Shown in pieces: positions 1 through 41,690 of a stretch of 41,690 bases of DNA. The notes under the pieces were generated by a model. That model did no database searches, was not told the origin of the DNA, and saw nothing but the letters and a program-made list of their open reading frames with translations. The DNA is taken from positions 1 to 41,690 of the IMG/VR virus record IMGVR_UViG_3300002461_000119; one strand, 5' to 3'. The position numbers and the translations under genes were made by a program. Within the stretch, counting starts at the first letter, position 1. Each line of letters begins with the position of its first letter. Source of the DNA: a virus.

Positions 1-94
1 CAAACTTAGGAACCTTTGTAGTGTCAAAGATACGGCTACCCATCGGAGTAAGGACACCATGAGGAGCGGTGTAAACTGTACGCCTATTACCACT
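1..94. repeat. terminal overlap, copy 1 (circular closure)
   Basis: Identical to 41597..41690. Lies inside the Sak4-like ORF. Confidence 0.9.
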
Positions 95-691
95 AGCAAG
101 CCCAACATAGTAAATCTCGCTCACGTTAAGGCCAAGAGGATTACGTACCTTTGCAGAAAGCATCATCGTCTGCCGGATGATTGATTTACCATCTTGAGCA
201 TACTCTGGATCATCAGCATGAGCAATGAAGAAACAGTGTTGTTTATTCTGACCTGTTGCACGAAGGATGCGAGTGATTACATCCATAGTGTGGCTATTGC
301 GAGCGCCCCAAGCAGCAAGGCCGGGAGCGTCGATCGAAGGAGTGAATGTGGCTGACTTACCAACTCCACGATTGATAGCATCAGTGATGCTAGCAGCAAC
401 AATGTTAGTGACGCTATCGACAATGACACTTTGATATGTATCCTTCTGTTGTACGATGAATGATGCAGCTTTCTTCGCTTGTTCGATCTGCTCACCAGCA
501 GGAAGAAGAGAGAAGTCAAGTAGATCGAAATCGTTACGGTGAGCTACGGAGAGGAAACCATCTGGGTCAAAGTTGATCAACAGTTTGCGACCCGGAAGGC
601 TCATTGCCCATGTTGTCTTGCCAGTCTTTGCATCACCCCAGATGACACCAGCAAGTCGGTGGACTAGATCAGCAGCACTAGTTGGTTGCAC
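1..691 (-). CDS. Sak4-like (AAA_24-type) RecA-fold ATPase, 5' part; ORF continues across the circular junction into 41690..41487
   Basis: Hand translation of the - strand: GTG at 691 with GGAG 7 nt upstream, no stop down to position 1 (checked codon by codon). N-terminal Walker A GDAKTGKTT. Absent from the ORF track only because it crosses the window edge. Confidence 0.7.
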   Translation of the reverse strand, partial: MQPTSAADLVHRLAGVIWGDAKTGKTTWAMSLPGRKLLINFDPDGFLSVAHRNDFDLLDFSLLPAGEQIEQAKKAASFIVQQKDTYQSVIVDSVTNIVAASITDAINRGVGKSATFTPSIDAPGLAAWGARNSHTMDVITRILRATGQNKQHCFFIAHADDPEYAQDGKSIIRQTMMLSAKVRNPLGLNVSEIYYVGLASGNRRTVYTAPHGVLTPMGSRIFDTTKVPKF

Positions 692-899
692 TTGGTTGCT
701 CCGTATCTGCTACATCGGATGTAATCATTTCAGCAAGTGCTTTTTGGATTTCATCTGAAAATTTTAAAAAGTTCTGCAAAACCTCGGGGTCGATAGAGAC
801 TGCGTGGTTCTCGTGATGGTTCACTGCAAGATTGATATGGTATCCATCGTAAGACGCATACACACCATCGCCAAGATAACGTGGTTCAGGAAGTGGCAT
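678..899 (-). CDS. hypothetical protein (73 aa)
   Basis: ORF track 678..923. Internal ATG at 899 preferred because AAGGAG lies 8 nt upstream. C-terminal ITSDVA is encoded by a P17 copy. Confidence 0.55.
   Translation of the reverse strand: MPLPEPRYLGDGVYASYDGYHINLAVNHHENHAVSIDPEVLQNFLKFSDEIQKALAEMITSDVADTEQPSATN
710..724. repeat. P17 palindrome copy
   Basis: CTACATCGGATGTAA, 1 mismatch. In CDS 678..899, read ITSDVA. 18 nt before GTG 691. Confidence 0.75.
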
Positions 900-904
900 G
901 ATTG

Positions 905-1069
905 TTACTCCTTTGCTTTCCAAGGACCGGCTTGTTCTTCGTTTTGGTGTAAACCTACAGAGTTACGAAACATTGCTCTTGAACGGCCTTCATCACCTTT
1001 TCCACCACGATGTTTAGTGATAATGTCGTCAATAAAGTCACAGAAAAGTTTGAATTGTTCTTCGGTCAT
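905..1069 (-). CDS. hypothetical small protein (54 aa)
   Basis: Below the ORF-track cutoff. Hand translation MTEEQFKLFCDFIDDIITKHRGGKGDEG... The ATG follows an AAGGAG that overlaps the stop of 1081..2193. Fills a gap in a tightly packed operon. Confidence 0.45.
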   Translation of the reverse strand: MTEEQFKLFCDFIDDIITKHRGGKGDEGRSRAMFRNSVGLHQNEEQAGPWKAKE

Positions 1070-1080
1070 TTGCACGACTG

Positions 1081-2193
1081 TTACTCCTTTCTCAAGAAAG
1101 CTTTGAACTCGCTTGGGGACATTTCTTCACTGATAATCATCTGTTCCCACATTACTTGTTGGTCTTCACGTTGTGCGGAACATAGATCAAGCAATGCACA
1201 AGGACGGAAGTATCGGTTACAAGAGTGCGTAAACATAGGTGCGTCAATTGCTGCCTCGTCACGATACTGTGCCATTACATCCAATGTAAAGAGCGCAGTT
1301 GTCAAGAAGTTACCAACTGCTTCTCTGTCACGATGGATGGGAAAGTGCATATTAGGTGCACTCGTCTTACGCACAGGTAAGGCACTACCTATCAAGATAC
1401 ACTCGTCAGCAACTTCTGGGAAGTATGCTTGGAGTGCACCAATGTATCCACTCTGTTGATGACGAGTACGAAACTGTTCACGCCAACCATCACCCATCGT
1501 GCTAGTCGTTTTGTATTCACCGAGTTTAACACGTTTAGTTTCGGGGTTTTGATAGAGAACGTCACCAAGACCGATGAAACGGATTTGTTCTTTGTAAGGA
1601 TTGTTAAACTCACCTATTACATCGCATGTAAAGATTACGTCCATACTCTTTTCTACACCGATAGTCTTGGTCGGATCGTTCTCATCTTCAATGTAAATTG
1701 GAAACCGAGACAGGTTTGACAAGAAATATCCTGCAAGCTCAAACGCACAATGCTCAAGGTTTGCAAGAGTACGATTGCGATCGTTCTCGTCGTCGTAGAA
1801 GTCACTCGTAGCGATGACATCAACAGCGAGTTTCTCCAAAGCACGAGACGGGTTCTGTTTATACAGTTCAAGATACTTGTCAAACGACAGAGCCTCAAAA
1901 CGATGCTCTCCATAGAGACTGACACCATGAAAGCGTCCATGATCAGGGAGGCCTTGAACCGCCGCAATCTGCATAAGATTGAATGCTGCGAATACATCGT
2001 GCATCACAGAGCCAGCTTCGAGAGCCATTTGACGATAGCCAGTGACAAAGCGTTTGTGTTGCACGTTGTGGATAATGCCCCATTTGGGACACGTAGTCAC
2101 TGCCTCAACGAGAGAGCTAGTAACATATGGCATGGATGTCTTCGTTACATCCGATGGGGTGCGTTGCACTCTCCAGTCGAGTACGCGGGTCAA
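1081..2193 (-). CDS. PD-(D/E)XK (Cas4/RecB-like) exonuclease
   Basis: 370 aa. GLGD-x14-EYK nuclease signature. One N-terminal Cys (TTCPKW) plus C-terminal CNRYFRPCALLDLC resemble a Cas4-type Fe-S cysteine set. Adjacent to the Sak4-like ATPase. Confidence 0.65.
   Translation of the reverse strand: MTRVLDWRVQRTPSDVTKTSMPYVTSSLVEAVTTCPKWGIIHNVQHKRFVTGYRQMALEAGSVMHDVFAAFNLMQIAAVQGLPDHGRFHGVSLYGEHRFEALSFDKYLELYKQNPSRALEKLAVDVIATSDFYDDENDRNRTLANLEHCAFELAGYFLSNLSRFPIYIEDENDPTKTIGVEKSMDVIFTCDVIGEFNNPYKEQIRFIGLGDVLYQNPETKRVKLGEYKTTSTMGDGWREQFRTRHQQSGYIGALQAYFPEVADECILIGSALPVRKTSAPNMHFPIHRDREAVGNFLTTALFTLDVMAQYRDEAAIDAPMFTHSCNRYFRPCALLDLCSAQREDQQVMWEQMIISEEMSPSEFKAFLRKE
1275..1289. repeat. P17 palindrome copy
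   Basis: TTACATCCAATGTAA, perfect. In the exonuclease CDS, read FTLDVM. Confidence 0.9.
1617..1631. repeat. P17 palindrome copy
   Basis: TTACATCGCATGTAA, perfect. In the exonuclease CDS, read FTCDVI. Confidence 0.9.
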
Positions 2194-2959: not shown

Positions 2960-2982
2960 AAAATAACTCCCATATTGCGATG

Positions 2983-2997
2983 TTACATTGGATGTAA
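2983..2997. repeat. P17 palindrome copy
   Basis: TTACATTGGATGTAA, perfect. Intergenic, 23 nt before HNH start 2959. Confidence 0.9.
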
Positions 2998-3066
2998 GAC
3001 AAGACCAGTAAGAGAATTAAGTAGTTTCCATAAAAATCATACATGGTCTTGTCTCCTCTGTTGTGT

Positions 3067-3399: not shown

Positions 3400-3417
3400 T
3401 GCTATTCCTTTCATTTG

Positions 3418-3432
3418 TTACACTGGATGTAA
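3418..3432. repeat. P17 palindrome copy
   Basis: TTACACTGGATGTAA, 1 mismatch. Intergenic, 18 nt before start 3399. Confidence 0.75.
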
Positions 3433-3436
3433 CAGG

Positions 3437-3736: not shown

Positions 3737-3942
3737 TTTGTGTTTCCTTTCTGTTTCTTTACATCCGGTTTAAGGACATCGTGAAGTATTTTGACCGCAC
3801 CTTGGAGTGAGTAGAGCATAGTCCAAAGCTCATTCTTCGATAGCGGCCGCTCGACTTCGAGAGCAAGAGCGATCTTACCTCGAATGTTTTGTAGACGTTC
3901 GTCTACTTTAGGAAGAAATTCAGACTGACGCGGTGGTATCAT
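3733..3942 (-). CDS. hypothetical protein (69 aa)
   Basis: ORF track 3733..4008. ATG 3942 preferred (GGAG 7 nt upstream). The longer version would overlap the upstream gene by 89 nt. Confidence 0.5.
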   Translation of the reverse strand: MIPPRQSEFLPKVDERLQNIRGKIALALEVERPLSKNELWTMLYSLQGAVKILHDVLKPDVKKQKGNTK

Positions 3943-4252
3943 CAGGTTTCTCCGGTGCGAACAAGTCTTGAGGATTGTAGCCAAGACGGGTAGCAAGTGC
4001 GTCCACACCAGTCATGATTGCAGCAGTGACATCCGCACCACGAGCAGCAACAGTAGCAATCTGTAGCATAGATGAACGAAGTTCCTTGATTTCTCGCTCT
4101 TGCTCACGGAGAGAATGATGCTGGTTCATGATGACCTTAGCAAGATCAGGATGCACTTGCGCACTCTTGAGAGCTTTGTAGACATCTTCACCAACCATCA
4201 TTGTCAGTGATGATTGATTGATTGCTGTTTGTAGTGCGTCACGTTTCGTCAT
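3920..4252 (-). CDS. hypothetical protein (110 aa)
   Basis: ORF track 3920..4291, which starts at TTG. The first ATG is at 4252, 4 nt after the upstream stop. Confidence 0.55.
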   Translation of the reverse strand: MTKRDALQTAINQSSLTMMVGEDVYKALKSAQVHPDLAKVIMNQHHSLREQEREIKELRSSMLQIATVAARGADVTAAIMTGVDALATRLGYNPQDLFAPEKPDDTTASV

Positions 4253-4256
4253 GATG

Positions 4257-4565
4257 TTATAGCAGCCTTTCTTGGTTCTCAATGTTAGCAATGTTGGAGT
4301 TGCTACTTGAGAGGTTTTCGATTGCGTTCTCTAGTTTTTGTAGAGCCTCATTGACCTTGGCTTTTGCGTTCTCAACTCTCGTTACACGGGATGTAAAGAG
4401 GTCAAGTTCTTTACCTTTGAGGGATTGAAGCTTGCCTTCGGTCTTTTCCTTGTAAGATTGAACAAGGACGAGACGGCGAGAGCGCTTGATCTGGATAAAG
4501 GTTTCTGCATCTTGGATTGTTTGCTTGCGTAGGTCAGGTGAAGCATAGATATGTGGTTCGGTCAT
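4257..4565 (-). CDS. hypothetical coiled-coil protein (102 aa)
   Basis: ORF track. K/E/L-rich heptad-like sequence. 4-nt overlap with the upstream ORF. Confidence 0.6.
   Translation of the reverse strand: MTEPHIYASPDLRKQTIQDAETFIQIKRSRRLVLVQSYKEKTEGKLQSLKGKELDLFTSRVTRVENAKAKVNEALQKLENAIENLSSSNSNIANIENQERLL
4382..4396. repeat. P17 palindrome copy
   Basis: TTACACGGGATGTAA, 1 mismatch. In CDS 4257..4565, read FTSRVT. Confidence 0.75.
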
Positions 4566-4813
4566 GTCTCTTGTCCTTCTACAAGCATCGCACGGATTTG
4601 TGCATCACAATCTATTTGTGCAGAAATTCTAGCACTATCCATGAGAGGAAACACTTCTGTACTAACGCCATTCAGTTGTTGACCAATGAGACGAAACCAG
4701 CGCCATCCATCAAAGTCATGAGCAAGATAATAAGTATAGCCCATTACATGAGCTACAGCACTTTGTTTACTTTCTTCCCATACTAAAGATTTAACTTGAG
4801 AAGGAACGGTCAT
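4562..4813 (-). CDS. hypothetical protein (83 aa)
   Basis: ORF track. 4-nt overlaps on both sides. Confidence 0.6.
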   Translation of the reverse strand: MTVPSQVKSLVWEESKQSAVAHVMGYTYYLAHDFDGWRWFRLIGQQLNGVSTEVFPLMDSARISAQIDCDAQIRAMLVEGQET

Positions 4814-5229
4814 ACTTGGTTTCCTTGATAACTAGTAGACAAAGACACAGGAGGCTTTGACTTCTTGACTGTCTTCTCTGCCATCTTATGAAGCTCTTGA
4901 GCAGAGAGGTCAAACTTCTCTGCCACAGCTTTGATGAATGCGTCCTTGTCGAAGCTTTCACGAGGGTTGTTGACTTTGCCTTTAAGTGTTACACCGGATG
5001 TAACGAGTAGAGTAGTCTCTGGCATAGGTTCATTGAATTTATGTTCAAAGGCTTCTTTGATTTCTTCGGCTGATTTCTCAAAGCGTTTCGCCACACCGAG
5101 AAGAGTATGATGAATAAACAAGTCTTGGACTTGCTTTGCAATGACGTGATTACTTGGCGGAAAGATCAACTCAGTAGCAAGACGAGTGACATCACGACCA
5201 AGAGTTGCAGGTTCGAAGTGGTATTCCAT
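4810..5229 (-). CDS. hypothetical protein (139 aa)
   Basis: ORF track. GAAAGGAA upstream of the ATG. A P17 copy lies 16 nt upstream. Confidence 0.65.
   Translation of the reverse strand: MEYHFEPATLGRDVTRLATELIFPPSNHVIAKQVQDLFIHHTLLGVAKRFEKSAEEIKEAFEHKFNEPMPETTLLVTSGVTLKGKVNNPRESFDKDAFIKAVAEKFDLSAQELHKMAEKTVKKSKPPVSLSTSYQGNQV
4989..5003. repeat. P17 palindrome copy
   Basis: TTACACCGGATGTAA, 1 mismatch. In CDS 4810..5229, read VTSGVT. Confidence 0.75.
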
Positions 5230-5245
5230 GGAGTTGTTCCTTTCG

Positions 5246-5260
5246 TTACACTGGATGTAA
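5246..5260. repeat. P17 palindrome copy
   Basis: TTACACTGGATGTAA, 1 mismatch. Intergenic, 16 nt before start 5229. Confidence 0.75.
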
Positions 5261-5264
5261 GAGT

Positions 5265-5430: not shown

Positions 5431-5670
5431 TTAAGTCTCCTCTGTCACATTGGGTGTATCGACGTGGTGTGTATTCAATACGTTCCAGTAAGCAGAAAAC
5501 TCATGGAAACGTTGTGTGATTGCTTCCACGTCGTCTCGTATATCACCAATGTCTACACCTTTTAGATGGTCAGGATCGGACATCAATTGAATGTTGAGTT
5601 TGCTTGACGCCTGTTTAAGTTGATTGTAAGCACCACGCATCGAACGTCTTACATGAGCTTTATCAATCAT
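5431..5670 (-). CDS. hypothetical protein (79 aa)
   Basis: ORF track. GGAGGAAAA upstream. 4-nt overlap with the upstream ORF. Confidence 0.6.
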   Translation of the reverse strand: MIDKAHVRRSMRGAYNQLKQASSKLNIQLMSDPDHLKGVDIGDIRDDVEAITQRFHEFSAYWNVLNTHHVDTPNVTEET

Positions 5671-5894
5671 GCTTTTCCTCCTTCCATATCTGTTACACTG
5701 GATGTAAAGTCTGGTTTGATTGTCACACGATGCAATTTGCCGTCGGGGTATAAATCAATATACGTCCCAAGCGTGAGTGTAGGATTATAAGCCGTCCACA
5801 AGCGCCAACGCCCGTGCTGCGGATCATAATGCAGCACGGGTGGTTTGCTTTGTGAAAAGACTTGAGCTAATCCTAAGCGGATTTCTTTTGTCAT
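5667..5894 (-). CDS. hypothetical protein (75 aa)
   Basis: ORF track. GAGGAAAA upstream. First gene after the strong sigma70-like promoter at 5978..6006. Confidence 0.6.
   Translation of the reverse strand: MTKEIRLGLAQVFSQSKPPVLHYDPQHGRWRLWTAYNPTLTLGTYIDLYPDGKLHRVTIKPDFTSSVTDMEGGKA
5693..5707. repeat. P17 palindrome copy
   Basis: TTACACTGGATGTAA, 1 mismatch. C-terminus of CDS 5667..5894, read FTSSVT. 22 nt before start 5670. Confidence 0.75.
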
Positions 5895-6244: not shown

Positions 6245-6592
6245 TTAAAATCGCAATTCTAATCCTGCAACAGCACCAACAATATCACCTTCTATCGCTG
6301 GTGCAACAAAAAGTGAAACCTTTTTCTTGATGTCTACGCCCGCACGAATAAATGGTAAAACGTCATGACCAGAGTAACCAGTAACAGCACCAATTTCAAG
6401 CCAGAGAGGACTTTGTTTGTCTTTTAGTTTGATGCCGCCATAAACAGAGACATTGCTTTCACTGTTATAGTAAACTCCAGCGATTAGACCTGTTTCTGTT
6501 ACATCGCATTTAACAGCTGGATGTACCTCGTTATACTCATTGGACAAACCAATGTGGTTAGACAGTGCGATTGCGAATAATATATTACACAT
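6245..6592 (-). CDS. hypothetical protein with outer-membrane beta-barrel-like C-terminus
   Basis: ORF track 6245..6712. ATG 6592 preferred (AAAGGA upstream, P17 16 nt upstream). Alternating hydrophobic pattern and terminal ...GLELRF resemble an OMP beta-signal. Confidence 0.5.
   Translation of the reverse strand: MCNILFAIALSNHIGLSNEYNEVHPAVKCDVTETGLIAGVYYNSESNVSVYGGIKLKDKQSPLWLEIGAVTGYSGHDVLPFIRAGVDIKKKVSLFVAPAIEGDIVGAVAGLELRF
6499..6513. repeat. P17 palindrome copy
   Basis: TTACATCGCATTTAA, 1 mismatch. In CDS 6245..6592, read VKCDVT. Confidence 0.7.
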
Positions 6593-6837: not shown

Positions 6838-6854
6838 GAAGTTGTAACAAGCGA
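6838..6854. repeat. 17-nt direct repeat, copy 2
   Basis: GAAGTTGTAACAAGCGA. Overlaps the hairpin AACAAGCG-N10-CGCTTGTT, which abuts a P17 copy. Confidence 0.8.
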
Positions 6855-6869
6855 CCTTGCGACCGCTTG

Positions 6870-6884
6870 TTACATTGGATGTAA
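6870..6884. repeat. P17 palindrome copy
   Basis: TTACATTGGATGTAA, perfect. 3 nt after the stop of 6888..7811. Upper edge of the non-coding island. Confidence 0.9.
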
Positions 6885-28785: not shown

Positions 28786-28797
28786 CAGGAGACGCAA

Positions 28798-32847: not shown

Positions 32848-32853
32848 AAGTTG

Positions 32854-32868: not shown

Positions 32869-32875
32869 CGAGAAA

Positions 32876-33599: not shown

Positions 33600-33817
33600 A
33601 AGTCCTCCTTCTTACAAAACCAATCTACAACTTGGATCGTCGTTACATCGAATGTAAGGTTTTCAAGTTTCTTGTCGCATTGGTAAGAGAGACAAGATCG
33701 TGGAATTGATTTTGTCTCTCCGTCAAGCATGTAGACAATGACTGACTTCTCTCGGAGACTTTTGATCCCCGAGATTGTCACATCTTTGTAGTTTAAACGG
33801 TCGATGTCGTTGTTCAT
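33596..33817 (-). CDS. hypothetical protein (73 aa)
   Basis: ORF track. 4-nt overlaps on both sides. Confidence 0.55.
   Translation of the reverse strand: MNNDIDRLNYKDVTISGIKSLREKSVIVYMLDGETKSIPRSCLSYQCDKKLENLTFDVTTIQVVDWFCKKEDL
33643..33657. repeat. P17 palindrome copy
   Basis: TTACATCGAATGTAA, perfect. CDS 33596..33817, read LTFDVT. Confidence 0.9.
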
Positions 33818-34591: not shown

Positions 34592-34728
34592 TGCTGTTTC
34601 TCCGCAGGAATTTTTAAGAGTGCCTCGTCTCTTTCATAGGCAATATCTACGATGATCTTAATAAGCTCTGTCTTTTTATAGGTCTTAAGCTTACGACCAC
34701 CATAGACACGATCTTCATCTTTGGTCAT
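34588..34728 (-). CDS. hypothetical small protein (46 aa)
   Basis: Below cutoff. Hand translation MTKDEDRVYGGRKLKTYKKTELIKIIVDIAYERDEALLKIPAEKQQ. ATGA overlaps at both ends. Confidence 0.4.
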   Translation of the reverse strand: MTKDEDRVYGGRKLKTYKKTELIKIIVDIAYERDEALLKIPAEKQQ

Positions 34729-34967
34729 TCCTCTTCCTTTACATCCGATGTAACGGTGATTTCCGTCACAGTGAAGTCACAGTCTTTGAGAGCAAAAGTA
34801 CGGAACGCTTGTTTATCAAGATCGAACGCGTAAAGCATCCACTGATCTTCTGGGTGCCAAGCACTGTGTGTCCAGATGATTTCTTTTGGCTGTACACGTC
34901 GGATAGTTACTTTACCGACATAGTTTGTGTATTTGAATTTCAGTTCGCTGTTATATGCTTCACCCAT
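34725..34967 (-). CDS. hypothetical protein (80 aa)
   Basis: ORF track. C-terminal TVTSDVKEEE contains a P17 copy. Confidence 0.55.
   Translation of the reverse strand: MGEAYNSELKFKYTNYVGKVTIRRVQPKEIIWTHSAWHPEDQWMLYAFDLDKQAFRTFALKDCDFTVTEITVTSDVKEEE
34739..34753. repeat. P17 palindrome copy
   Basis: TTACATCCGATGTAA, perfect. C-terminus of 34725..34967, read VTSDVK. 10 nt before ATG 34728. Confidence 0.9.
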
Positions 34968-34969: not shown

Positions 34970-35419
34970 TTAAAACTTTTTACCTCCGTCTTTCATCCGG
35001 TTCTCAAGTTTGTGATCTGCACGACTTGCGTTATATTTAAGCTTTTCAAAGATTGCGTCTCCAATAGGAAGCTTAAATCCTGCGCAGTAATCAAGAATAC
35101 GAATGACACAGTCAGCAAGCTCGACGACTTCATTTTTAAACTCAGGAAGGTGATCATCTTGTCTATCTTTTCGCAATCCTTCAAGGGCTTCGGAAAGCTC
35201 ACTGTGCATAAGAGCAATTGCTTCACCTTTGTTTCGGATAGGCTTACCATCCTCACCACGCTTCCACCATTTCTGATTAAGTTTATGAATGTCATCTGCA
35301 AGGTCTTGCACTTCTTCACAGTGCTGCATGATACATTCACGCAAACCATCAAAGATAGTCTCTGTTACATTGGATGTAACGTCAAGCTGCAAGTCTTGCT
35401 TTTCTGTATGATCCGGCAT
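34970..35419 (-). CDS. MazG-like nucleoside triphosphate pyrophosphohydrolase
   Basis: 149 aa. All-alpha NTP-PPase pattern ALMHSELSEALEGLRK ... EVVELADCVIRILDY ... KLKYNASRADH. Confidence 0.65.
   Translation of the reverse strand: MPDHTEKQDLQLDVTSNVTETIFDGLRECIMQHCEEVQDLADDIHKLNQKWWKRGEDGKPIRNKGEAIALMHSELSEALEGLRKDRQDDHLPEFKNEVVELADCVIRILDYCAGFKLPIGDAIFEKLKYNASRADHKLENRMKDGGKKF
35365..35379. repeat. P17 palindrome copy
   Basis: TTACATTGGATGTAA; the 17-mer 35364..35380 is perfect. MazG-like N-terminus, read VTSNVT. Confidence 0.9.
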
Positions 35420-35603
35420 GTTTCAACTCCTTCGGATTGATTGTGGGAAGTTCCATAGTCCCGGTTACGACATCAACATTAAAGCCACAACGACAGTACC
35501 ATACGAATATGAAGTGATCATCTTTACTTACTGTCATTTGTAGAGGTCTATCACAACATGGACATTTTGGCTTATTGATGTGACTTCGTGGAACGAGTGT
35601 CAT
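35382..35603 (-). CDS. zinc-ribbon protein (73 aa)
   Basis: ORF track. CPCC ... CRC cysteine pairs. 4-nt overlap with the polymerase gene end. Confidence 0.5.
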   Translation of the reverse strand: MTLVPRSHINKPKCPCCDRPLQMTVSKDDHFIFVWYCRCGFNVDVVTGTMELPTINPKELKHAGSYRKARLAA

Positions 35604-38026
35604 ATCTTTGCAGCCTCCAACTTGATCGAAACCATGTTCTCCATGTTGCGAATTTCTTTCTCAGGGTCGCTGATTTTGAGGTCAGCGGGGATGATCATGG
35701 GATTTGTCTTTCCCGTTACAATGGATGTAACCATGATAGGTTTTTCGGCATAGGCTTTTGCAATGGACAAAGCTTTATGTGCGAACTCTGGAGTTGCTAC
35801 ACCCCAGAGAGCGTCGTGAACGTTAGCAACAACTCGCCCATAACGCATGTCCCATCGTTCGTCTTCTTGGGTTTGGTACCAAACTTGAGACACCTTATCG
35901 CCGATTGTGGATTGAGGACGAAAAGCAACGACTGATTTGAGAGCTTCTTCGTCATCAAGGCGATTAAGGAATTGGAGCCTGCGTCCAAGACTGTTAAAAA
36001 GTTGCCTTTTCTTTCTCGCTTCACTTTCTAGTTTCTCCCACCAAACTTTCAGTTCTGGGTTTACTCTGTGATAGGCATAATAGTTCTTGGCAGCGTTACC
36101 AAGAGAAAGACCTGTTGTTTGGGCGAGACGTGCAATCTGCATCCGGTAATTAAGCCCGTGACGACAACGTTTTGCGATATACCGAATAGTGAACTCACCA
36201 TTGATTTCGTCCTTCTTGGGAACTTCATCGTAAGGAACGTTGAACATGGTACTTGCCAAGCTTCTATGTGCGTCGAACTCACCATCCATACGCGCTTTCT
36301 CGAAGTCTTCGACCCACTTTTCGATCCACGCATCCCATCCGACATAACGAGCCTCCGCTTGTGCTAGGTCAAAGTACCAGAAGACGCAGTTGTCATCTGC
36401 GAGGTACATAGCTCTAGCCCGTCGCGGTTGATTTTGCGCATTTCCTCCAGAACCCCAGAGCGTCTGTCCAGAAGAAAGGCGTCCCGGAGCAGAAGTTGTG
36501 CCGAATTGTCTATATTCTGCACGGAAACGGCCGTCTGGGTCAATCTTTGTTTCGACATAAGTGCTAAAGAACTTATGCTCACGAGCGTAGTTGTTGAGAG
36601 CAATGATGACATTCTTGACACTTTCACTCACCCTTGGGTCTTTGAGCCAGTTTTCACGGACCGGTTCCGCCGTGGAACGAGAGGGACTTGAGCAACCGAG
36701 CTTCTCGTAGAAGAGTTGTTTGAGTTGCTTAGGGCTATTTGGATTGACAACCAACTCGTGGTCACCAGTAGCAACGCTAATCGCTCTCTGGAATTTATCG
36801 TATAGGTCTGTGACATCTTTAGAAAGTTCCTTATGTAGACGAAGTTTCTCGTTCATGTCAACCTTGATACCGTCAACAGTTGACTGTGTTAAATGAGGAT
36901 GAAGTCTCATTACATGGGATGTAAAGAATTCGAGAAGGTTCTGCTGTTGCAACTCGACACGAAGTTTGTTTGCAATCGCAAGAGTGATCGCAGCATCTTT
37001 ACAGTTGTATCGCCAAAAACCTTCGATGTCTCCACCTTCTTTGAACACGTCTTTTTCATCCTTGTAGTAAGGATGATCAGTGTATTGTGAAGTTAAGAAG
37101 CCAAGGTTATGAGGAAGGCTAGGATACAAAGTATGATGGGCAAGGAGAGTATCAAAACTAACTCTAAATCGCGCATGATCTTTGAACCCCATGAAGTAAC
37201 TGTCAAAGTTGCCATTTTGTGCGATGACTTCAACGGATTTGTCATCCGTGACTTCAAGGAACTTGCGAAGGATTAGAAACTCTTCTTCTGGTGTATAGAC
37301 ATTGGTGCTTTTGTCGCGGAAAGCGATACACATCGCCTCGTCTTCTTTATACGCAACGCCGATGCAAGCTGTCTCCATACCGATGACTTCGATGTCAACG
37401 GAGATTGTTTTATGTAAACGACATTGTTCAAGATAATTGAGTGCCTCGTCACAGGTCGGGTAAAGGATCGAGTGTATAACCGGGACATGAAAGTCTCCAT
37501 CAAGAACACGTTTTGCTTTGTCCATGTCCATGAGAAAGACAATCTCAAGGGATGGATCACGAAGGATCATAGCGGGATTGTTAGATACCAGTACAGGAAT
37601 GTCACCGTAACTATAGACAGAACCACGAAGAGTTGATACGCCCTCAGTACCCAAGAGCGCTGCGATAGCCGTGTTGCCAAGAGCAATAATAAGCTTGCAA
37701 TTATGAAGGTGACTAAGCTCATATTGCAGTGCCTCCTTCCATAGTTCAAACTCAACTTGATTGACACTTGTATTCGGTGTAACGCGACGCTTGATGACAT
37801 TCGTCACGTAGCAATGAGTACGAAGAATGCCAAAGCGACGAAGGGCATTCCACAAATGTTTACCAGCAGCACCCATAAACGGTTTGTTGTAAGCAACTTC
37901 TTGCTCACCTGGATACTCGGATACGATAACGATTTCTGCATCATCATCGCCATCCATAGCGCATTGAATATCTAGTCCGTACGATGCTGTGTGTTCAGCG
38001 AAACGAATGAATTGCGATGTTGACAT
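35600..38026 (-). CDS. family-A DNA polymerase with N-terminal family-4-UDG-like domain and 3'-5' exonuclease
   Basis: ORF track 35600..38110. ATG 38026 preferred (AAGGAG 7 nt upstream). UDG-like SEYPGEQE...PFMGAAGKHL...NPAMILR. Exo motif ISVDIEV. Pol motifs FDLAQAEARY (A), RYIAKRCRHGLNY (B), VANVHDAL (C). Confidence 0.85.
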   Translation of the reverse strand: MSTSQFIRFAEHTASYGLDIQCAMDGDDDAEIVIVSEYPGEQEVAYNKPFMGAAGKHLWNALRRFGILRTHCYVTNVIKRRVTPNTSVNQVEFELWKEALQYELSHLHNCKLIIALGNTAIAALLGTEGVSTLRGSVYSYGDIPVLVSNNPAMILRDPSLEIVFLMDMDKAKRVLDGDFHVPVIHSILYPTCDEALNYLEQCRLHKTISVDIEVIGMETACIGVAYKEDEAMCIAFRDKSTNVYTPEEEFLILRKFLEVTDDKSVEVIAQNGNFDSYFMGFKDHARFRVSFDTLLAHHTLYPSLPHNLGFLTSQYTDHPYYKDEKDVFKEGGDIEGFWRYNCKDAAITLAIANKLRVELQQQNLLEFFTSHVMRLHPHLTQSTVDGIKVDMNEKLRLHKELSKDVTDLYDKFQRAISVATGDHELVVNPNSPKQLKQLFYEKLGCSSPSRSTAEPVRENWLKDPRVSESVKNVIIALNNYAREHKFFSTYVETKIDPDGRFRAEYRQFGTTSAPGRLSSGQTLWGSGGNAQNQPRRARAMYLADDNCVFWYFDLAQAEARYVGWDAWIEKWVEDFEKARMDGEFDAHRSLASTMFNVPYDEVPKKDEINGEFTIRYIAKRCRHGLNYRMQIARLAQTTGLSLGNAAKNYYAYHRVNPELKVWWEKLESEARKKRQLFNSLGRRLQFLNRLDDEEALKSVVAFRPQSTIGDKVSQVWYQTQEDERWDMRYGRVVANVHDALWGVATPEFAHKALSIAKAYAEKPIMVTSIVTGKTNPMIIPADLKISDPEKEIRNMENMVSIKLEAAKI
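35716..35730. repeat. P17 palindrome copy
   Basis: TTACAATGGATGTAA, 1 mismatch. Polymerase C-terminal tail, read VTSIVT. Confidence 0.75.
36910..36924. repeat. P17 palindrome copy
   Basis: TTACATGGGATGTAA, perfect. Polymerase CDS, read FTSHVM. Confidence 0.9.
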
Positions 38027-38198
38027 GTTTTGGCTCCTTAAGTTTTGTCTTGAAGAAGGCGATACGATGAACAGGTATCTTGAGTTTTGTTGATGTAGCA
38101 ACTTCACCAACGAATGCAGAATAACGAAGCACTTCGTTGATGTCGTAACAACCGTAGCTGTCTACTTTCGGCGGGTCTGGAATTGCCAATTGTGGCAT
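37995..38198 (-). CDS. hypothetical protein (67 aa)
   Basis: ORF track. AAAGGAG 8 nt upstream. Overlaps both neighbours out of frame. Confidence 0.45.
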   Translation of the reverse strand: MPQLAIPDPPKVDSYGCYDINEVLRYSAFVGEVATSTKLKIPVHRIAFFKTKLKEPKHVNIAIHSFR

Positions 38199-38476
38199 CT
38201 TGCATACTCCTTTCGAGTGTCATCTTTATGACGTTTGATTACATCGGATGTAGTGTGTCGAGAAAGTCCAGTAAGCTCCATTAACTGTTTCGGTGTTGCA
38301 AAATATGGAGCAGAAAGGACAATTCTACAAAACTCGTACATGATCTTTGAAGAATGATCCTTTGGAATGTCATAACGAGCGATGTCCTCTTGGAAGTAAA
38401 TGGTGGCAGCAGCACGGAATAACCGTGCTGCCTCCGCATTGTTGAGGTTAAAGGAGATTGGGCTTTTTGTCAACAA
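38162..38476 (-). CDS. helix-turn-helix DNA-binding protein
   Basis: 104 aa (TTG start after GGAGAG). Classic HTH TPKQLMELTGLSRHTTSDVIKR. The recognition-helix codons are themselves a P17 copy. Confidence 0.6.
   Translation of the reverse strand: MLTKSPISFNLNNAEAARLFRAAATIYFQEDIARYDIPKDHSSKIMYEFCRIVLSAPYFATPKQLMELTGLSRHTTSDVIKRHKDDTRKEYARCHNWQFQTRRK
38239..38253. repeat. P17 palindrome copy
   Basis: TTACATCGGATGTAG, 1 mismatch. Codons of the HTH recognition helix, read TTSDVI. Confidence 0.75.
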
Positions 38477-38736: not shown

Positions 38737-39057
38737 TCATTTGATGGGCCATATTTGGTCAGGCCACAGTTTCTCTTTACTGTCCAAGCCGGTGTCATCC
38801 AGTTGACCCGCCTCAATCGCGATTTTCTTAGCTTCAACATTATGCACCACACGTCCGTGGTTTGTGATAAATTGGATGTCTTCTTCGAGGAACTTTCTAA
38901 GTCGTGGTGTTTCCTTTAACAGTTGGTTGTAGTAATCCATTACATGCGATGTAACGGGGATTGGGATAGTGACTTTACAATGCAAGTCTTCTCGAAAAGC
39001 ATAACCTTCGAGCACGAAACATGCACATGAAAGCCGTTCTTTATGAATAGGTTTCAC
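38737..39057 (-). CDS. hypothetical protein (106 aa; start uncertain)
   Basis: ORF track (GTG start overlapping the helicase end by 17 nt). The alternative ATG at 38940 lies inside a P17 copy but has no SD. Confidence 0.45.
   Translation of the reverse strand: MKPIHKERLSCACFVLEGYAFREDLHCKVTIPIPVTSHVMDYYNQLLKETPRLRKFLEEDIQFITNHGRVVHNVEAKKIAIEAGQLDDTGLDSKEKLWPDQIWPIK
38940..38954. repeat. P17 palindrome copy
   Basis: TTACATGCGATGTAA, perfect. In ORF 38737..39057, read VTSHVM. Confidence 0.9.
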
Positions 39058-40336
39058 GTTCGATGTCCACCAATGTATCCAGTGCGTAGGTCAACGATCC
39101 TGCGACGTTGAGGATGATGAGCTTTTCTTTTGCTCGGGTGACGGCGGTGTAAACGTTTTGACGGTTTGCGGCACGAGTACGAGAGCATACGAATAGAACA
39201 ACATCGAATTGTGAACCTTGAGATTTGTGTGTCGAAATAGCATACCCAAGATTGAGATAATGCCGAGGATCGTAGACATATTTTTCTCCTGTGGTTGGAT
39301 TAAACGCTTCCATCTGTGCAGAGATTTCGATGTCTCGGTCATCCATGTGAAGCCACATGGTGCCTTTTTCTGGATCAAAATCAAGCACACGTCCGATAGA
39401 ACCATTCATCAAGTTAAGGTTGTAGTCGTTCTGTGTCCAGATTACTTTGTCGTTCTTCTTAAAAGATCGTACGGTCATAGAGCCGTCTTTTTCTTTCTTG
39501 AAGATAGTAATCTTCGCTCTTTCAGGATTGAACCGTTGTTGAATAGCCTTGTTAAGGTTCTCCGTTCCGTGAACAGTCTTGTTGGTTGGGCAAATGATCT
39601 GCGCTTTGTCAGTCGTGAAGTCAATGTCTTGTGCAATAGTCAAGACACGGTTTTGAGTGTCAACGTTACCGATACGTAGAATTGAAACTTGATCGTTAGC
39701 CATAGGCATCTTGTTACGAATGACACGATCAGCGAGTTCAATGATACCGTCGGTTGAACGAAAGTTCTTTGTTAGTGTTACAGAAGGAAAGGTCTTGAGG
39801 TCCTTAGCGAACGGAGAGAAGTTAGGGTTCTTTCTGCCAGAGCTATCGTAAGTCCCGATAGGTGGAAGCTGGTTGATGTCTCCAAAGAAACGAATGATGC
39901 TGCCTCTTTTCATTGCATCAATGAGAGCACGACGCAAGTCTTCTGCAATCATAGATGCTTCGTCGATGAGGATAGCGTCAAATGGCATTGGGTTCATCTT
40001 CGAGTATGCGGGTAGTCCAAAATCGTCGTCGTCTTTAGGAACAGTGAAGCGTAACATCCGATGTGCCGTTGACGCTCGCAGTCCTGTAGCTTCTTGGATA
40101 CGCTTTGCTGCTCGACCAGTTGGAGCAGCAAGAGCGATGGAGAATTGTGGATCACCTGCAGGAGAATAACCTTTGGTGATTTCGAGTTCTTCTGTTAGTT
40201 TTTCATGTGACTTCTTAAGGATCGTTGTCTTACCTGTACCAGCTTGACCAGTCACACAAGCGATGCGAATGGATGTGTCGGCACAGAGTTCAACTGCTTC
40301 TTCCTGTTCCTTGGAGAGGATGATTTCAGTTTGCAT
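39041..40336 (-). CDS. RecD/Dda-like SF1 DNA helicase
   Basis: 431 aa. Motif I VTGQAGTGKTT, motif II ILIDEASM, GDINQLPPIG, C-terminal ISTHKSQGSQFDVV. Confidence 0.85.
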   Translation of the reverse strand: MQTEIILSKEQEEAVELCADTSIRIACVTGQAGTGKTTILKKSHEKLTEELEITKGYSPAGDPQFSIALAAPTGRAAKRIQEATGLRASTAHRMLRFTVPKDDDDFGLPAYSKMNPMPFDAILIDEASMIAEDLRRALIDAMKRGSIIRFFGDINQLPPIGTYDSSGRKNPNFSPFAKDLKTFPSVTLTKNFRSTDGIIELADRVIRNKMPMANDQVSILRIGNVDTQNRVLTIAQDIDFTTDKAQIICPTNKTVHGTENLNKAIQQRFNPERAKITIFKKEKDGSMTVRSFKKNDKVIWTQNDYNLNLMNGSIGRVLDFDPEKGTMWLHMDDRDIEISAQMEAFNPTTGEKYVYDPRHYLNLGYAISTHKSQGSQFDVVLFVCSRTRAANRQNVYTAVTRAKEKLIILNVAGSLTYALDTLVDIERETYS

Positions 40337-40597: not shown

Positions 40598-40600
40598 GAG

Positions 40601-40615
40601 TTACATCGGATGTAA
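40601..40615. repeat. P17 palindrome copy
   Basis: TTACATCGGATGTAA; the 17-mer 40600..40616 is perfect. Between the stop of 40628..41053 and hairpin 40574..40597. Confidence 0.9.
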
Positions 40616-40627
40616 CGTTTCTTATTG

Positions 40628-41053
40628 TTACACCGTTGCGAGAGCCGACACAGTCTCGACGTTGTTCACCGGAGCGTTCTGATAAACACTGGTGGACAGG
40701 AGGAGTTGTGCTTCCTTACCGATCCAGTCTTTCGGATCGAAGGTCGAGCCTTTCACTTCCACACCGAGGGCTTTCAGCAGTGCCTTGTACGGTGCAACAG
40801 TCCGACGGTTGTTCGGGTCGGGCAGCGCAACGCGAGAGTACACCACGTTAAGGCCATCAGGCGCGTTTGCAGCATCGTAGTCAGCCGGGAAGTCCGACGG
40901 ATCAATACGAAACTGCATGTACAGGTAACCTTGCGGTACTTTCTCAGAGTGGCGAATTTCAATGTCGCGCACTTCCGCACGGTAGGGTCCCGCAGGAAGC
41001 GGGGTGTATTCCACCATGTCTTCAATGTTACCTGCGAGTTGAATAACGTCCAT
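40628..41053 (-). CDS. DUF669-like protein (putative ssDNA-binding)
   Basis: 141 aa. N-terminal YTPLPAGPYRAEVRDIEIRHSEK...YLYMQFRI resembles DUF669-type phage proteins that accompany AAA_24 ATPases. Visibly G/C-richer gene, followed by a hairpin. Confidence 0.45.
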   Translation of the reverse strand: MDVIQLAGNIEDMVEYTPLPAGPYRAEVRDIEIRHSEKVPQGYLYMQFRIDPSDFPADYDAANAPDGLNVVYSRVALPDPNNRRTVAPYKALLKALGVEVKGSTFDPKDWIGKEAQLLLSTSVYQNAPVNNVETVSALATV

Positions 41054-41100
41054 GTTAGTCTCCTAGATTGCGAGGATTGGCTACCTCTGGTTGACGGGTG

Positions 41101-41115
41101 TTACATTGGATGTAA
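41101..41115. repeat. P17 palindrome copy
   Basis: TTACATTGGATGTAA; the 17-mer 41100..41116 is perfect. Intergenic, 47 nt before ATG 41053. Confidence 0.9.
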
Positions 41116-41145
41116 CAACCCGGTAGTATAACAAGGCTCGGCTTG

Positions 41146-41490
41146 TTATTGCGGGGCGCTTTCATCACCGGTGAAATGCGCAATTGTTTCGTGAAGCTTT
41201 TGCATAGCGTCGGGATCGTTGAGATTGATTTCTACAATGTCAAGACCTGTAGCATCATAGTTCTCTTCATCAAATTCAAATACCTTGAACACTGTCATGA
41301 CTTCGTTAGCAGCAAAGCTTTTCATGGTGTCTGAGACACCTTCAAGTCTGTGAACAGCAGTCATTGCGTCCCACATATTGAGAGGAGTGGCTTCAAGGCA
41401 AGAAACCGCAACCTGTAAATGATGGACAAAAAGTTTGATTGCGTCATCTTGCAAAATCATTAGTGGTGTGGTGGCTAACTCTTTATTCAT
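41146..41490 (-). CDS. hypothetical protein (114 aa)
   Basis: ORF track. ATGA overlap with the end of the Sak4-like gene. Confidence 0.6.
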   Translation of the reverse strand: MNKELATTPLMILQDDAIKLFVHHLQVAVSCLEATPLNMWDAMTAVHRLEGVSDTMKSFAANEVMTVFKVFEFDEENYDATGLDIVEINLNDPDAMQKLHETIAHFTGDESAPQ

Positions 41491-41690
41491 TTCGGAACCT
41501 CCGTTAGTTTACTACGTTTCGCTTTGAAAGCGTCGAATATCTTTACAAGACTTGTAGGTTGTTCTTCGTCAGGCTTTTCGATTGAGTATGGTAACTCAAA
41601 CTTAGGAACCTTTGTAGTGTCAAAGATACGGCTACCCATCGGAGTAAGGACACCATGAGGAGCGGTGTAAACTGTACGCCTATTACCACT
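41487..41690 (-). CDS. Sak4-like ATPase, 3' part of the ORF that starts at 691 (41597..41690 duplicates 1..94)
   Basis: Frame continuity checked by hand: ...KVPKF|ELPYSIEKPDEEQPTSLVKIFDAFKAKRSKLTEVPK, stop TGA at 41489..41487. Confidence 0.7.
   Translation of the reverse strand, partial: SGNRRTVYTAPHGVLTPMGSRIFDTTKVPKFELPYSIEKPDEEQPTSLVKIFDAFKAKRSKLTEVPK
41597..41690. repeat. terminal overlap, copy 2 (circular closure)
   Basis: Identical to 1..94. Confidence 0.9.

Follow-up and report, generated by a model that had tools for sequence, protein, structure and literature searches.

A phage genome with 51 copies of a 17-bp palindrome

The window analysed here is the whole of IMG/VR virus record IMGVR_UViG_3300002461_000119 (positions 1 to 41,690; 41,690 nucleotides), and it carries 51 copies of a 17-bp palindrome, GTTACAT-N3-ATGTAAC, which we call P17. 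Because an exact 94-bp direct repeat stands at its two ends (1-94 and 41597-41690), the window is a complete, circularly assembled phage genome of ~41.6 kb, and an AAA_24-type (Sak4-like) open reading frame (ORF) runs over the circular junction. The genes form leftward arms at 1-10.2 kb and 32.9-41.7 kb and a rightward arm at 11.2-32.8 kb. Those recognised encode terL (11885-13375), portal, major capsid, tail fibres, a uracil-DNA-glycosylase (UDG)-exonuclease-PolA fusion, an SF1B helicase (39041-40336) and a dNMP kinase. Domain scans with Pfam, PHROG and NCBIfam took in ~45 of the ~68 predicted proteins, and statements on scanned proteins below refer to this set.

Among 50,697 phage records and 72,556 plasmids, neither megablast (25 kb) nor tblastn (capsid protein) gave a match. 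A capsid alignment search of GTDB genomes returned no relatives, and patterns of PolA peptides led to no viral contig there. The terL and PolA searches yielded matches of just 22-28% identity. By these searches the phage appears to be without a cultured relative. Rfam and tRNA scans of the window returned no matches.

The core of P17, TTACAT-N3-ATGTAA, occurs in 35 exact copies, against a mean of 0.01 in 100 dinucleotide shuffles. With up to one mismatch there are 49 matches against 0.05 expected, and the largest value in the shuffles was 1. Twelve copies are perfect over the 17-mer, and two are compensated, at 13755-13771 (GCTACAT..ATGTAGT) and 17432-17448 (GTTACAC..GTGTAAT). An earlier note, made from the sequence alone, had counted 35 perfect, 14 one-mismatch and two compensated copies, 51 in all, with 12 perfect 17-mers, and every one of these numbers was reproduced exactly. 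Its division into 24 intergenic and 27 in-gene copies came out nearly the same on the ORF map used here, which places 25 between ORFs and 26 inside. The map also agrees with the note that terL and the helicase gene are free of copies and that the control region and early arm are densest, with 10 copies within 8092-11226. The density over the window is 1.2 per kb. An exact 17-mer scan of IMG/VR returned single chance matches and a few contigs with 2-3 copies.

Selection on P17 inside genes

The 26 in-gene copies share a single codon frame, GTT ACA Tnn nAT GTA ACn, which reads V-T-S-D/N-V-T. Fourteen hexapeptides of the proteome could be encoded by the core, and every one of them is written with it exactly, against 0.30 in synonymous-codon shuffles (maximum 3). 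The hexapeptides are themselves ~75-fold over-represented (14 versus 0.19 in residue shuffles). Codons and amino acids are thus both bent to hold the DNA word, and P17 is under strong nucleotide-level selection between genes and inside them. The enrichment claimed in the earlier note stands under the synonymous-codon shuffle (14 in-gene cores against 0.30, maximum 3) as it does under the dinucleotide shuffle (35 against 0.01).

The frame rule was considered as a sign of a translation-linked function and rejected, since the frame-0 peptide is ~31 times likelier a priori (0.188 versus 0.006, residue shuffles). The rule follows from amino-acid availability, as the other stop-free frame needs Y-I/M-x-C-N. 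An ATG-TAA start-stop mini-ORF in the right arm was also rejected: no Shine-Dalgarno sequence lies upstream, and the mini-ORF is lost in the TTAAA and CTGTAG versions of the motif described below. The in-gene copies are not in-frame mobile insertions either, because the alignments show no gaps at the sites. Relatives have homologous residues there, for example VVDYVT and VTTYVT where the window has VTSYVT.

Lineage-specific versions in related phages

Capsid and early-protein searches of IMG/VR, JGI, ENA and Logan assemblies yielded ~20 related contigs, with 67-92% capsid identity, the same gene order and DNA that is mostly unalignable. All of them have their own lineage's version of the dyad, at 1.0-1.8 sites per kb. 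L136 and L139 share GTTACAT-N3-ATGTAAC with the window, and L123 and L133 have GTTACAA-CCA-TTGTAAC (for L133 also given as GTTACAA-N3-TTGTAAC). The version of L138 is a perfect 17-mer, GTTACAAG-S-CTTGTAAC, and that of L142 and L143 is asymmetric, TTACAA-N3-WTATAA. In L141 and L135 it is the 16-bp even palindrome TTACAAWGCWTTGTAA, with half-sites one bp further apart. L125 and L126 carry TTAAA-N5-TTTAA, often with AGGA in the centre directly before a start codon, and the distant L145 has six copies of CTACAG-N3-CTGTAG in 3 kb. Most family versions have ACAA-N3/4-TTGT as their inner part. In L138 and L141 the palindrome runs on through the centre, and the L138 centres GGC and GCC stand at 9:8 in the sense strand, showing no polarity. 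Density has held steady while sequence and half-site spacing have drifted, as expected from a co-evolving protein-DNA pair.

The control regions of the relatives hold 3-7 copies each and have the highest copy density in every genome. Positions kept across relatives lie upstream of and inside the small ORF before ORF 6888-7811, after the stop codon of that ORF, at the pair before the terS-like gene, at the terS/terL junction, at the end of the scaffold-like gene and at the N-terminus of the ORF after the capsid gene, whereas most deep in-gene sites turn over. The earlier note had held that neutral decay without positional conservation would speak against a function. The relatives show otherwise, because density and several positions have been kept in DNA that is unalignable.

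These data bear on the possibility that P17 is a selfish or neutral repeat of no use to the phage, such as a small mobile palindrome or a product of mutation bias. Miniature palindromes such as REP and RPE do spread in bacterial genomes, even in frame inside genes. The in-gene copies of P17, however, replace homologous residues without a change in length, codon and amino-acid choice is bent towards the motif, density and several positions persist where the relatives no longer align, and no transposase or HUH gene was found among the scanned proteins. We regard a selfish or neutral origin as largely refuted and give it next to no probability.

Placement at gene junctions and in the control region

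Copies crowd the gene junctions: the distance to the next start codon is 0-30 nt for 15 of them (2.6 expected), and the distance from the preceding stop codon is 0-12 nt for 12 (1.1 expected) (Table 1). The usual order at a junction is stop, P17, an optional terminator-like hairpin or sigma-70-like promoter, Shine-Dalgarno sequence and start. At 32853, 40600, 18485 and 6869 the copy stands between a stop codon and a terminator-like hairpin, and ~17 copies lie deep within long genes. Gaps between copies range from 33 to 2346 bp genome-wide with a mean of 817 bp. The spacing is evener than random (coefficient of variation 0.71 versus 0.97, p=0.009), and no gap exceeds 2346 bp where a maximum of 3679 bp was expected.

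In the window, L136, L139 and L143, a conserved -35 element (TTGACT or TAGACA) lies 16-18 bp before the TACA of a P17 left arm. The left arm therefore sits on the -10 of the first early promoter, which is a classic operator position. The P17 pair in the late-operon leader is kept in L136 and L138, and two further copies (10497 and 10864) occupy non-coding DNA upstream of the promoters. Promoter-like sites are not enriched in the window (27 versus 32.5 in shuffles), and only one copy, at 10260, coincides with a -10 position. The early genes have strong sigma-70-like promoters.

Table 1 Positions of the P17 copies, given in their sense reading, and of other features of the window. Codon frames refer to the ORF named; conservation refers to related contigs.
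Feature	Position	Strand	Context	Remarks
P17 ATTACATCCGATGTAGC	709-725		within ORF 678-899(-), codon frame 0	1 core mismatch
P17 TTTACATTGGATGTAAT	1274-1290		within ORF 1081-2193(-), frame 0	exact core
P17 TTTACATGCGATGTAAT	1616-1632		within ORF 1081-2193(-), frame 0	exact core
P17 CTTACATCCAATGTAAC	2982-2998		between ORFs; start codon 22 nt on	exact core
P17 GTTACATCCAGTGTAAC	3417-3433		between ORFs; stop +3 nt, start 17 nt on	1 core mismatch
P17 TTTACATCCCGTGTAAC	4381-4397		within ORF 4257-4565(-), frame 0	1 core mismatch
P17 GTTACATCCGGTGTAAC	4988-5004		within ORF 4810-5229(-), frame 0	position kept in L136, L138, L133
P17 CTTACATCCAGTGTAAC	5245-5261		between ORFs; stop +3 nt, start 15 nt on	homology-block edge versus L136/L139
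P17 TTTACATCCAGTGTAAC	5692-5708		3' end of ORF 5667-5894(-), frame 0	kept in 6/8 relatives
P17 CTTACATCCAATGTAAA	6226-6242		between ORFs; stop +2 nt, start 22 nt on	
P17 GTTAAATGCGATGTAAC	6498-6514		within ORF 6245-6592(-), frame 0	1 core mismatch
P17 GTTACATCCGATGTAAA	6608-6624		between ORFs; start 15 nt on	
P17 CTTACATCCAATGTAAC	6869-6885		stop of ORF 6888-7811 +2 nt, then hairpin	kept after homologous gene in L136, L138, L139, L143, L144, L145
P17 TTTACATCCAATGTAAA	7872-7888		within ORF 7823-8035(-), frame 0; 60 nt before start of ORF 6888-7811	kept in 6/7 relatives
P17 GCTACATCCAATGTAAT	8092-8108		between ORFs, directly upstream of TTGACA promoter-like element	kept in 7/7 relatives
P17 GTTACATCGTATGTAAC	8562-8578		stop +4 nt, then long hairpin	
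P17 GTTACATACGATGTAAT	9043-9059		between ORFs	
P17 GTTACACTGGATGTAAT	9499-9515		9 nt upstream of promoter-like TTGACT-16-TATGAT (9489-9462, minus strand)	
P17 GTTACATTCGATGTAAC	9645-9661		between ORFs, then hairpin	
P17 GTTACATTGAATGTAAC	10260-10276		left arm = -10 (TACATT) of early promoter TTGACT-16-TACATT (10296-10269, minus strand)	first early ORF 24 nt on
P17 ATTACATGGGATGTAAG	10497-10513		non-coding control region, upstream of early promoter	
P17 ATTACATCGAATGTAAC	10864-10880		non-coding control region	
P17 CTTACATCTAATGTAAT	11177-11193		late (+) operon leader	pair member 1
P17 GTTACATCCAATGTAAG	11210-11226		19 nt before terS-like ORF	pair member 2; kept in 7/9 relatives
P17 GTTACATCCGATGTAAG	11858-11874		stop +3 nt, terL start 10 nt on	kept in 7/9 relatives
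P17 GCTACATTGGATGTAGT	13755-13771		within portal ORF, frame 0	compensated C2/G16
P17 GTTACATCCCATTTAAC	13830-13846		within portal ORF, frame 0	
P17 GTTACACCCGATGTAAA	15503-15519		within ORF 15332-16429(+), frame 0	
P17 GTTACATCCGATGTAAA	16349-16365		3' end of ORF 15332-16429; major capsid start 60 nt on	kept in 5/9 relatives
P17 GTTACACGCCGTGTAAT	17432-17448		N-terminus of ORF 17393-17839, frame 0	compensated C7/G11; site at same protein position in 4/5 relatives
P17 GTTACATCCAATGTAAC	18485-18501		stop +4 nt, then GC-rich hairpin	
P17 GTTACATCCATTGTAAT	19923-19939		within ORF 19200-20852, frame 0	
P17 GTTACATCGTATGTAAC	21065-21081		within tail-fibre-like ORF 20849-22306, frame 0	VTSYVT
P17 GTTACATTCAATGTAAA	22503-22519		within ORF 22329-22583, frame 0	
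P17 ATTACATCCGATGTAAC	24324-24340		3' end of ORF 24189-24353; next start 9 nt on	
P17 ATTACATTCGATGTAAC	25204-25220		between ORFs; start 20 nt on	
P17 GTTACATCGGATGTAAC	25439-25455		3' end of ORF 25241-25477; next start 23 nt on	
P17 ATTACATAGGATGTAAC	27438-27454		stop +5 nt, start 2 nt on	centre AGGA is the only Shine-Dalgarno-like sequence
P17 CTTACATCCGATGTAAC	28770-28786		stop +3 nt, then AGGAG and start of 1349-aa ORF	
P17 GTTACATCTAATGTAAC	29017-29033		within ORF 28798-32847, frame 0	
P17 GTTACATCCTATGTAAC	31363-31379		within ORF 28798-32847, frame 0	
P17 GTTACATCCTATGTAAC	32853-32869		last stop of + arm +5 nt	directly before terminator-like hairpin with T run
P17 CTTACATTCGATGTAAC	33642-33658		within ORF 33596-33817(-), frame 0	
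P17 GTTACATCGGATGTAAA	34738-34754		3' end of ORF 34725-34967(-); next start 9 nt on	
P17 GTTACATCCAATGTAAC	35364-35380		within ORF 34970-35419(-), frame 0	
P17 GTTACATCCATTGTAAC	35715-35731		within UDG-exonuclease-PolA ORF, frame 0	
P17 TTTACATCCCATGTAAT	36909-36925		within UDG-exonuclease-PolA ORF, frame 0	
P17 ACTACATCCGATGTAAT	38238-38254		within ORF 38162-38476(-), frame 0	
P17 GTTACATCGCATGTAAT	38939-38955		between ORFs	
P17 GTTACATCCGATGTAAC	40600-40616		stop +11 nt; next start 49 nt on	then terminator-like hairpin with T run
P17 GTTACATCCAATGTAAC	41100-41116		between ORFs; start 46 nt on	
Non-coding control region	10236-11245		between divergent early (-) and late (+) arms	5 P17, extra half-sites, promoter-like sites, parS consensus, conserved GC-rich block
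307-aa orphan protein ORF	6888-7811	-	most conserved early protein	candidate P17 binder

The earlier note saw no ordinary annotation class (promoter, terminator, CRISPR, att, cos) that would explain this pattern, and this was borne out, with sigma-70 promoters and intrinsic terminators as the forms considered. The P17 arms stand 3 bp apart and are not a -35 and -10 at 16-18 bp. An intrinsic terminator was rejected because the stem is 5/7 A/T, the sequence 3' of the copies is T-poor and separate terminator-like hairpins follow some of them. A CRISPR array was rejected on the genome-wide gaps of 33-2346 bp with no fixed period. Integron attC core sites (GTTRRRY), PAR-bZIP sites (GTTACGTAAC), the Bdellovibrio LexA box (TTAC-N3-GTAA) and TyrR boxes differ from P17 in spacing or arm order and were dropped.

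P17 might instead be a compact promoter for phage-specific machinery, read by an unrecognised RNA polymerase or sigma-like factor, or by an N4-type polymerase on an extruded hairpin. Many copies stand directly upstream of T-poor leaders with a Shine-Dalgarno sequence, positions 17/18 form a Y/R step, the right arm is TATAA(C/T) in L142 and L143, and a 1349-aa virion-module protein without assigned function is present. N4 hairpin promoters need a central loop purine, and the template-strand loop of P17 would be YGG and thus purine-rich. The scanned proteins, however, include no RNA polymerase or sigma homologue. At several copies the start codon is 2-11 nt away or the Shine-Dalgarno sequence abuts or lies inside the motif, so that an RNA beginning at the site would be without that sequence. 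Promoter function, which we consider very unlikely, is further opposed by the four copies listed above that stand between stop and hairpin, by the ~17 copies deep in genes and by early genes already served by strong sigma-70-like promoters. The N4-type hairpin form was rejected in its own right, with no RNA polymerase homologue among the scanned proteins and with 51 copies in all gene classes, some of them between stop and terminator.

The even spacing, the fill-in sites in long genes and the mean gap of 817 bp would suit a role in DNA metabolism. P17 could provide lagging-strand loading or priming signals from a control-region origin, anchors for a chromatin-like coat, or hot spots of cassette recombination involving the exonuclease, the AAA_24/Sak4-like ATPase and an SSB-like protein. 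No primase was identifiable anywhere in the genome, beside PolA and the SF1B helicase, and the switch of site polarity at the control region and convergent end (see below) fits bidirectional replication as well as transcription. Sites at 724, 5246/5261, 6869, 9498 and 10497 mark the start or end of homology blocks shared by the window and L136/L139, and recombination between the 17-bp repeats of Cluster O phages gave insertions and deletions (PMC4351075). Such a role does not, however, require the tight placement at stops, ribosome-binding sites and the early promoter. The block edges may only mark islands of conservation where genes end, recombination at a palindromic target would bring deletions and inversions as well, and GC skew gave no clear origin or terminus signal. 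We judge a role in DNA metabolism instead of gene expression unlikely, though worth keeping in view.

Anatomy and strand bias of the site

Each copy was oriented by the local direction of transcription (sense strand). Arm positions 2-7 and 12-16 carry 1.6-2.0 bits of information, and position 11 carries 1.25 bits. The symmetry reaches one position further out (Y at -1, R at +18), giving a 17-19-bp dyad, and the genome also holds 26 solitary half-sites.

The earlier note took the 3-nt centre to be free, which is wrong in this genome. In the sense strand, position 8 is C in 36 of the 51 copies and position 9 is C in 36 and G in 13. Centres of the form CCN outnumber NGG 28:8 overall (p=0.001) and 13:1 among intergenic copies outside the control region (p=0.002). 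This polarity switches with the gene arms, at the control region and the convergent end, and is not tied to one physical strand. In the consensus nick sites of T5- and LUZ24-type virion DNA, by comparison, the single-strand interruptions all fall on a single physical strand. Related phages show it too: the TATAA arm lies on the 3' side 19:6 in L142/L143, A7..A11 sites of L122 are biased ~7:2, and L135 and L141 prefer AAGCAT to ATGCTT. All of these biases favour A, or avoid G and T, at weakly specified sense-strand positions. The sense strand of short spacers is rich in A and poor in T (A 137, T 50, C 68, G 70). Most of the polarity can therefore be accounted for by the base composition of translation-initiation regions, and we do not read the strand bias as evidence for a strand-specific mechanism.

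The earlier note had also raised a 7-bp RNA stem. A hairpin in RNA or single-stranded sense DNA, bound by a specific protein, could serve mRNA processing, stabilise ends or act as a translational operator near the ribosome-binding site. The folding itself stands for the window, where P17 forms a 7-bp stem with a 3-nt loop (z ~-5 to -7, with two extra flanking pairs that we added). Copies crowd starts (15 versus 2.6) and stops (12 versus 1.1), polarity tracks the direction of transcription, sense-strand T7.G11 wobble variants stand to C.A variants at 5:3, and two copies are compensated. The Arg-rich helix of the candidate protein described below could equally bind RNA. The idea is weakened by family versions that lack hairpin potential: TTAAA-N5-TTTAA gives no RNA fold (0 kcal/mol), and the L142/L143 version (TTACAA-N3-TTATAA), by sequence reading, would interrupt an all-A/U stem midway with a C.A mismatch. 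Within the window there is no pair covariation at the outer positions (-1,18) and (1,17), and the core varies too little to show any. The G.U wobble was likewise set aside, since NGT codons (codon 4) at conserved in-gene sites explain the G11 variants. In addition, GGC and GCC loops are equally frequent in the sense strand of L138, some copies lie in apparently untranscribed control DNA, and cleavage or ribosome blocking would be harmful at the ~17 copies deep in long genes. A hairpin-bound protein is, in our view, distinctly unlikely. Recognition of duplex DNA is favoured over RNA, and RNA hairpin, promoter and terminator are all disfavoured.

A candidate binding protein

The protein encoded by ORF 6888-7811 (307 aa) occurs in every relative at 38-89% identity. 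P17 copies at conserved positions flank the ORF on both sides, and do so even in the distant L145. Only 43 clusters, all full-length and of the same orphan family, came out of a profile search against 1.8 billion representatives, and the family has no Pfam, PHROG or NCBIfam match. Its AlphaFold2 (AF2) model (pLDDT 81) gave no significant fold match in PDB or BFVD. The best-conserved segment is an invariant Arg/Asn-rich helix, residues 143-161 (RRRAQRNALNNRLARCCK), and the few variable residues of this basic helix differ between the T-type, A-type and CTACAG-type lineages, with 147/148 and 154 as suspected determinants of specificity. Further core early proteins are encoded by ORFs 5667-5894, 7823-8035, 4810-5229, 4257-4565 and 3920-4252. 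On these sequence features, the 307-aa protein is the best candidate for the P17 binder.

Other features of the genome

A 14-pair hairpin at 6843-6874 (-) joins the right arm of the P17 copy at 6869 to a solitary GTTACA half-site 20 nt downstream and encloses AAGCGGTCGCAAGGTCGCTT; L139 has a similar arrangement. Three IMG/VR contigs carry 2-3 close copies of TTACAT-N3-ATGTAA (L007, 3056-3106; L037, 852-1175; L097, 8569-8891) and showed no relation to the window in tblastx. L037 and L097 have spacings of 235 and 73 bp in common, and the word may be used in another viral lineage.

The control region contains a perfect 16-bp parS consensus, TGTTTCACGTGAAACA, at 10539-10554, which is the chromosomal ParB/Spo0J site. 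It is also present in the control region of L143 (7041-7056) and in none of the other relatives. By its sequence, the site might recruit host ParB, leading to plasmid-like carriage or interference with host segregation. At ~10640-10790 (+), an AT-rich promoter-like TTTACA..TATAAA is followed ~70-100 nt later by a strong terminator-like hairpin, GGCGGTAGTGAGAAATCACTGCCGCC TTTTTT (10750-10785). With no ORF between and no Rfam match, the stretch is a candidate small RNA. A GC-rich block, CCGCCACGCCCGG(N2)CCCAGCCT at 11101-11125 (+), is kept in the window, L136 and L138 amid unalignable DNA. It is followed by (G)ACACAGTTTGTT in the late-operon leader of the window and L138, and L136 differs there. 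The block may serve in late regulation, as a pac site or as an origin. A second conserved regulatory word of the phage family, TTGACACAGTTTG(TT), is repeated in the window (5998, 8191, 11022 and others) and in L136, L138 and L139. In places it begins sigma-70-like promoters (-35 plus spacer), and elsewhere it follows a TATAAT/TATAAA box.

The DNA polymerase (35600-38110, -) fuses a family-4-like UDG domain, a 3'-5' exonuclease and PolA. The conserved early protein 8583-8933 (-) has an N-terminal signal-peptide-like sequence, MNIKQTVLAMATVFAFPMIAQAQE, recognised by eye, which suggests that it is exported.

Comparison with known repeat arrays

Operators built on ACAA..TTGT half-sites, with N4/N6 spacings, occur in phage 434 and as the targets of the C repressor of Rhizobium phage 16-3, which accepts two spacings. 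We treat them as a lead only: they number few per genome, are read by a known helix-turn-helix (HTH) repressor and have spacings unlike those of the P17 family. The KorB OB sites of IncP plasmids, the P1 C1 operators and the N15 SopB sites show that one protein can use many dispersed palindromic or fixed words. Like P17, they include copies at promoters and copies far from any. They differ in number (~4-20 sites), are not known to lie in coding sequence at the density of P17 and are bound by proteins of known families (ParB, C1). REP/BIME elements and T4-type PeSLs are repeated palindromes at the 3' ends of cistrons that affect mRNA stability or modular gene shuffling. They are longer (20-40 nt or more) and imperfect, with structure conserved above sequence; REPs are chromosomal and linked to RAYT transposases, and PeSLs contain a promoter. 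P17, by contrast with REP/RAYT, belongs to a phage genome with no HUH or transposase match among the scanned proteins, and half of its copies are intragenic.

The earlier note pointed to the Cluster O palindromes and to stoperators, and these are indeed the closest precedents (PMC4351075, PMC9283540). The Cluster O repeat, 5'-TGTTCGGNNNCCGAACA (TGTTCGG-N3-CCGAACA), is 17 bp long with 34 copies in Corndog, and a dimeric DNA-binding protein was suggested for it (PMC4351075). It shares with P17 the 17-bp length, the 7-3-7 architecture with nearly invariant arms, more than 30 copies in short intergenic gaps and coding regions (for P17, 51, with 25 between and 26 inside ORFs), a compositionally biased centre and an orientation that is at most weak. 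Most Cluster O positions are common to relatives and the word is absent from other genomes, and several junction sites of P17 are kept. Recombination between Cluster O copies is tied to gene gain and loss; homology blocks end at P17 sites, though no clean indel of two copies against one was seen there. The two words, GTTACATNNNATGTAAC and TGTTCGGNNNCCGAACA, are unrelated in sequence and phage lineage, presumably also in host, and P17 is ~2.5 times denser (1.2 versus ~0.5 per kb). The P17 family is deeply diverged, with several specificity variants that include a spacing change and polar versions, whereas the Cluster O genomes are mutually close. Codon and peptide selection, demonstrated for P17, is not known to be reported for Cluster O (PMC4351075). 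To the 7-3-7 architecture already known from Cluster O, P17 adds a higher density and variants spread over a diverged family.

Stoperators, the sites of an immunity repressor that binds as a monomer (L5 gp71-type, HTH plus a second domain), are 13-mers of asymmetric sequence (PMC9283540, PMC6550527). They are the only mechanistically understood genome-wide arrays, in which the repressor blocks both initiation and elongation (PMC9283540). As with P17, tens of copies are spread genome-wide at promoters and in short intergenic spaces, and the site sequence co-evolves with the phage lineage. Their orientation correlates with transcription. In the window the P17 arms are symmetric and the centre alone is polar (13:1 in intergenic copies), L142/L143 have polar arms (19:6) and L138 stands at 9:8, and the bias may be compositional. 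Stoperators are 13-mers without symmetry, whereas P17 is a 17-19-bp dyad. Stoperators occur in temperate phages and maintain lysogeny, and the P17 phage has no recognisable HTH protein, repressor or integrase among the scanned proteins. P17 may work as stoperators do, yet it departs from them in the form of the site and in the lack of a recognisable repressor and integrase.

P17 as a proposed duplex-DNA operator array

We propose that P17 is a genome-wide array of duplex-DNA operators for a phage-encoded, probably dimeric protein that most likely acts on transcription. This is our tentative choice, held with a confidence a little short of even, and the dimeric-operator reading of the earlier note agrees best with the comparative data. 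It takes in the selection on the word, the co-evolving variants, the clustering in the control region and the overlap with one promoter. The ~50 copies would be recognition sites of a sequence-specific protein of this phage family, whose existence and dimeric state we infer. At the early promoter it would repress by occlusion, and between cistrons it might form punctuating roadblocks or architectural anchors. Fill-in sites within long genes would hold the spacing below ~2.3 kb, and the strand bias at loosely read positions would be a secondary imprint of the A-rich, T-poor sense strand of the spacers.

Several observations weigh against an operator array. Ordinary DNA-bound dimers are poor blocks to elongating RNA polymerase, and most P17 copies are not near promoters. 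No DNA-binding domain was recognised in the ~45 phage proteins scanned with Pfam, PHROG and NCBIfam, and the phage HTH proteins assumed in the earlier note could not be identified in these scans. The model of the 307-aa protein gave weak partial winged-helix matches at probability 0.1-0.4, and the co-variation of its helix with the motif is suggestive only, because it is confounded by phylogeny. Stoperator-type silencing lacks an obvious life-cycle context, because no integrase or other lysogeny gene was found among the scanned proteins; the parS consensus is the sole lysogeny-compatible hint in the genome. A symmetric dimer alone does not predict the strand polarity (13:1 in the window, 19:6 in L142/L143, ~7:2 in L122), and composition accounts less well for the C-over-G bias of the window, where spacers hold C 68 and G 70. 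The Cluster O authors thought a transcriptional role unlikely for their repeat, with most sites away from promoters (PMC4351075).

A wider form of the operator array is more speculative, and we think it quite improbable. An unseen protein family with a new fold, the 307-aa orphan, would read a lineage-specific dyad code written about once per kb genome-wide, including in the amino-acid sequences of proteins for virion structure and replication. Such a code would yield a polar nucleoprotein scaffold for organising how a lytic phage genome is transcribed and/or replicated, a chromatin punctuation distinct from immunity repressors.

For annotators, P17 is a warning that strong nucleotide-level constraints can sit within phage structural genes. 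Phage genomes with tens of copies of one short palindrome are familiar from Cluster O, and the P17 family, with at least six specificity versions over deeply diverged relatives, is a much richer comparative system in which cross-specificity becomes testable. If the binder is confirmed, it would bring a new DNA-binding fold, a set of orthogonal pairs of protein and operator, and a novel means by which a small virus marks and organises its chromosome.

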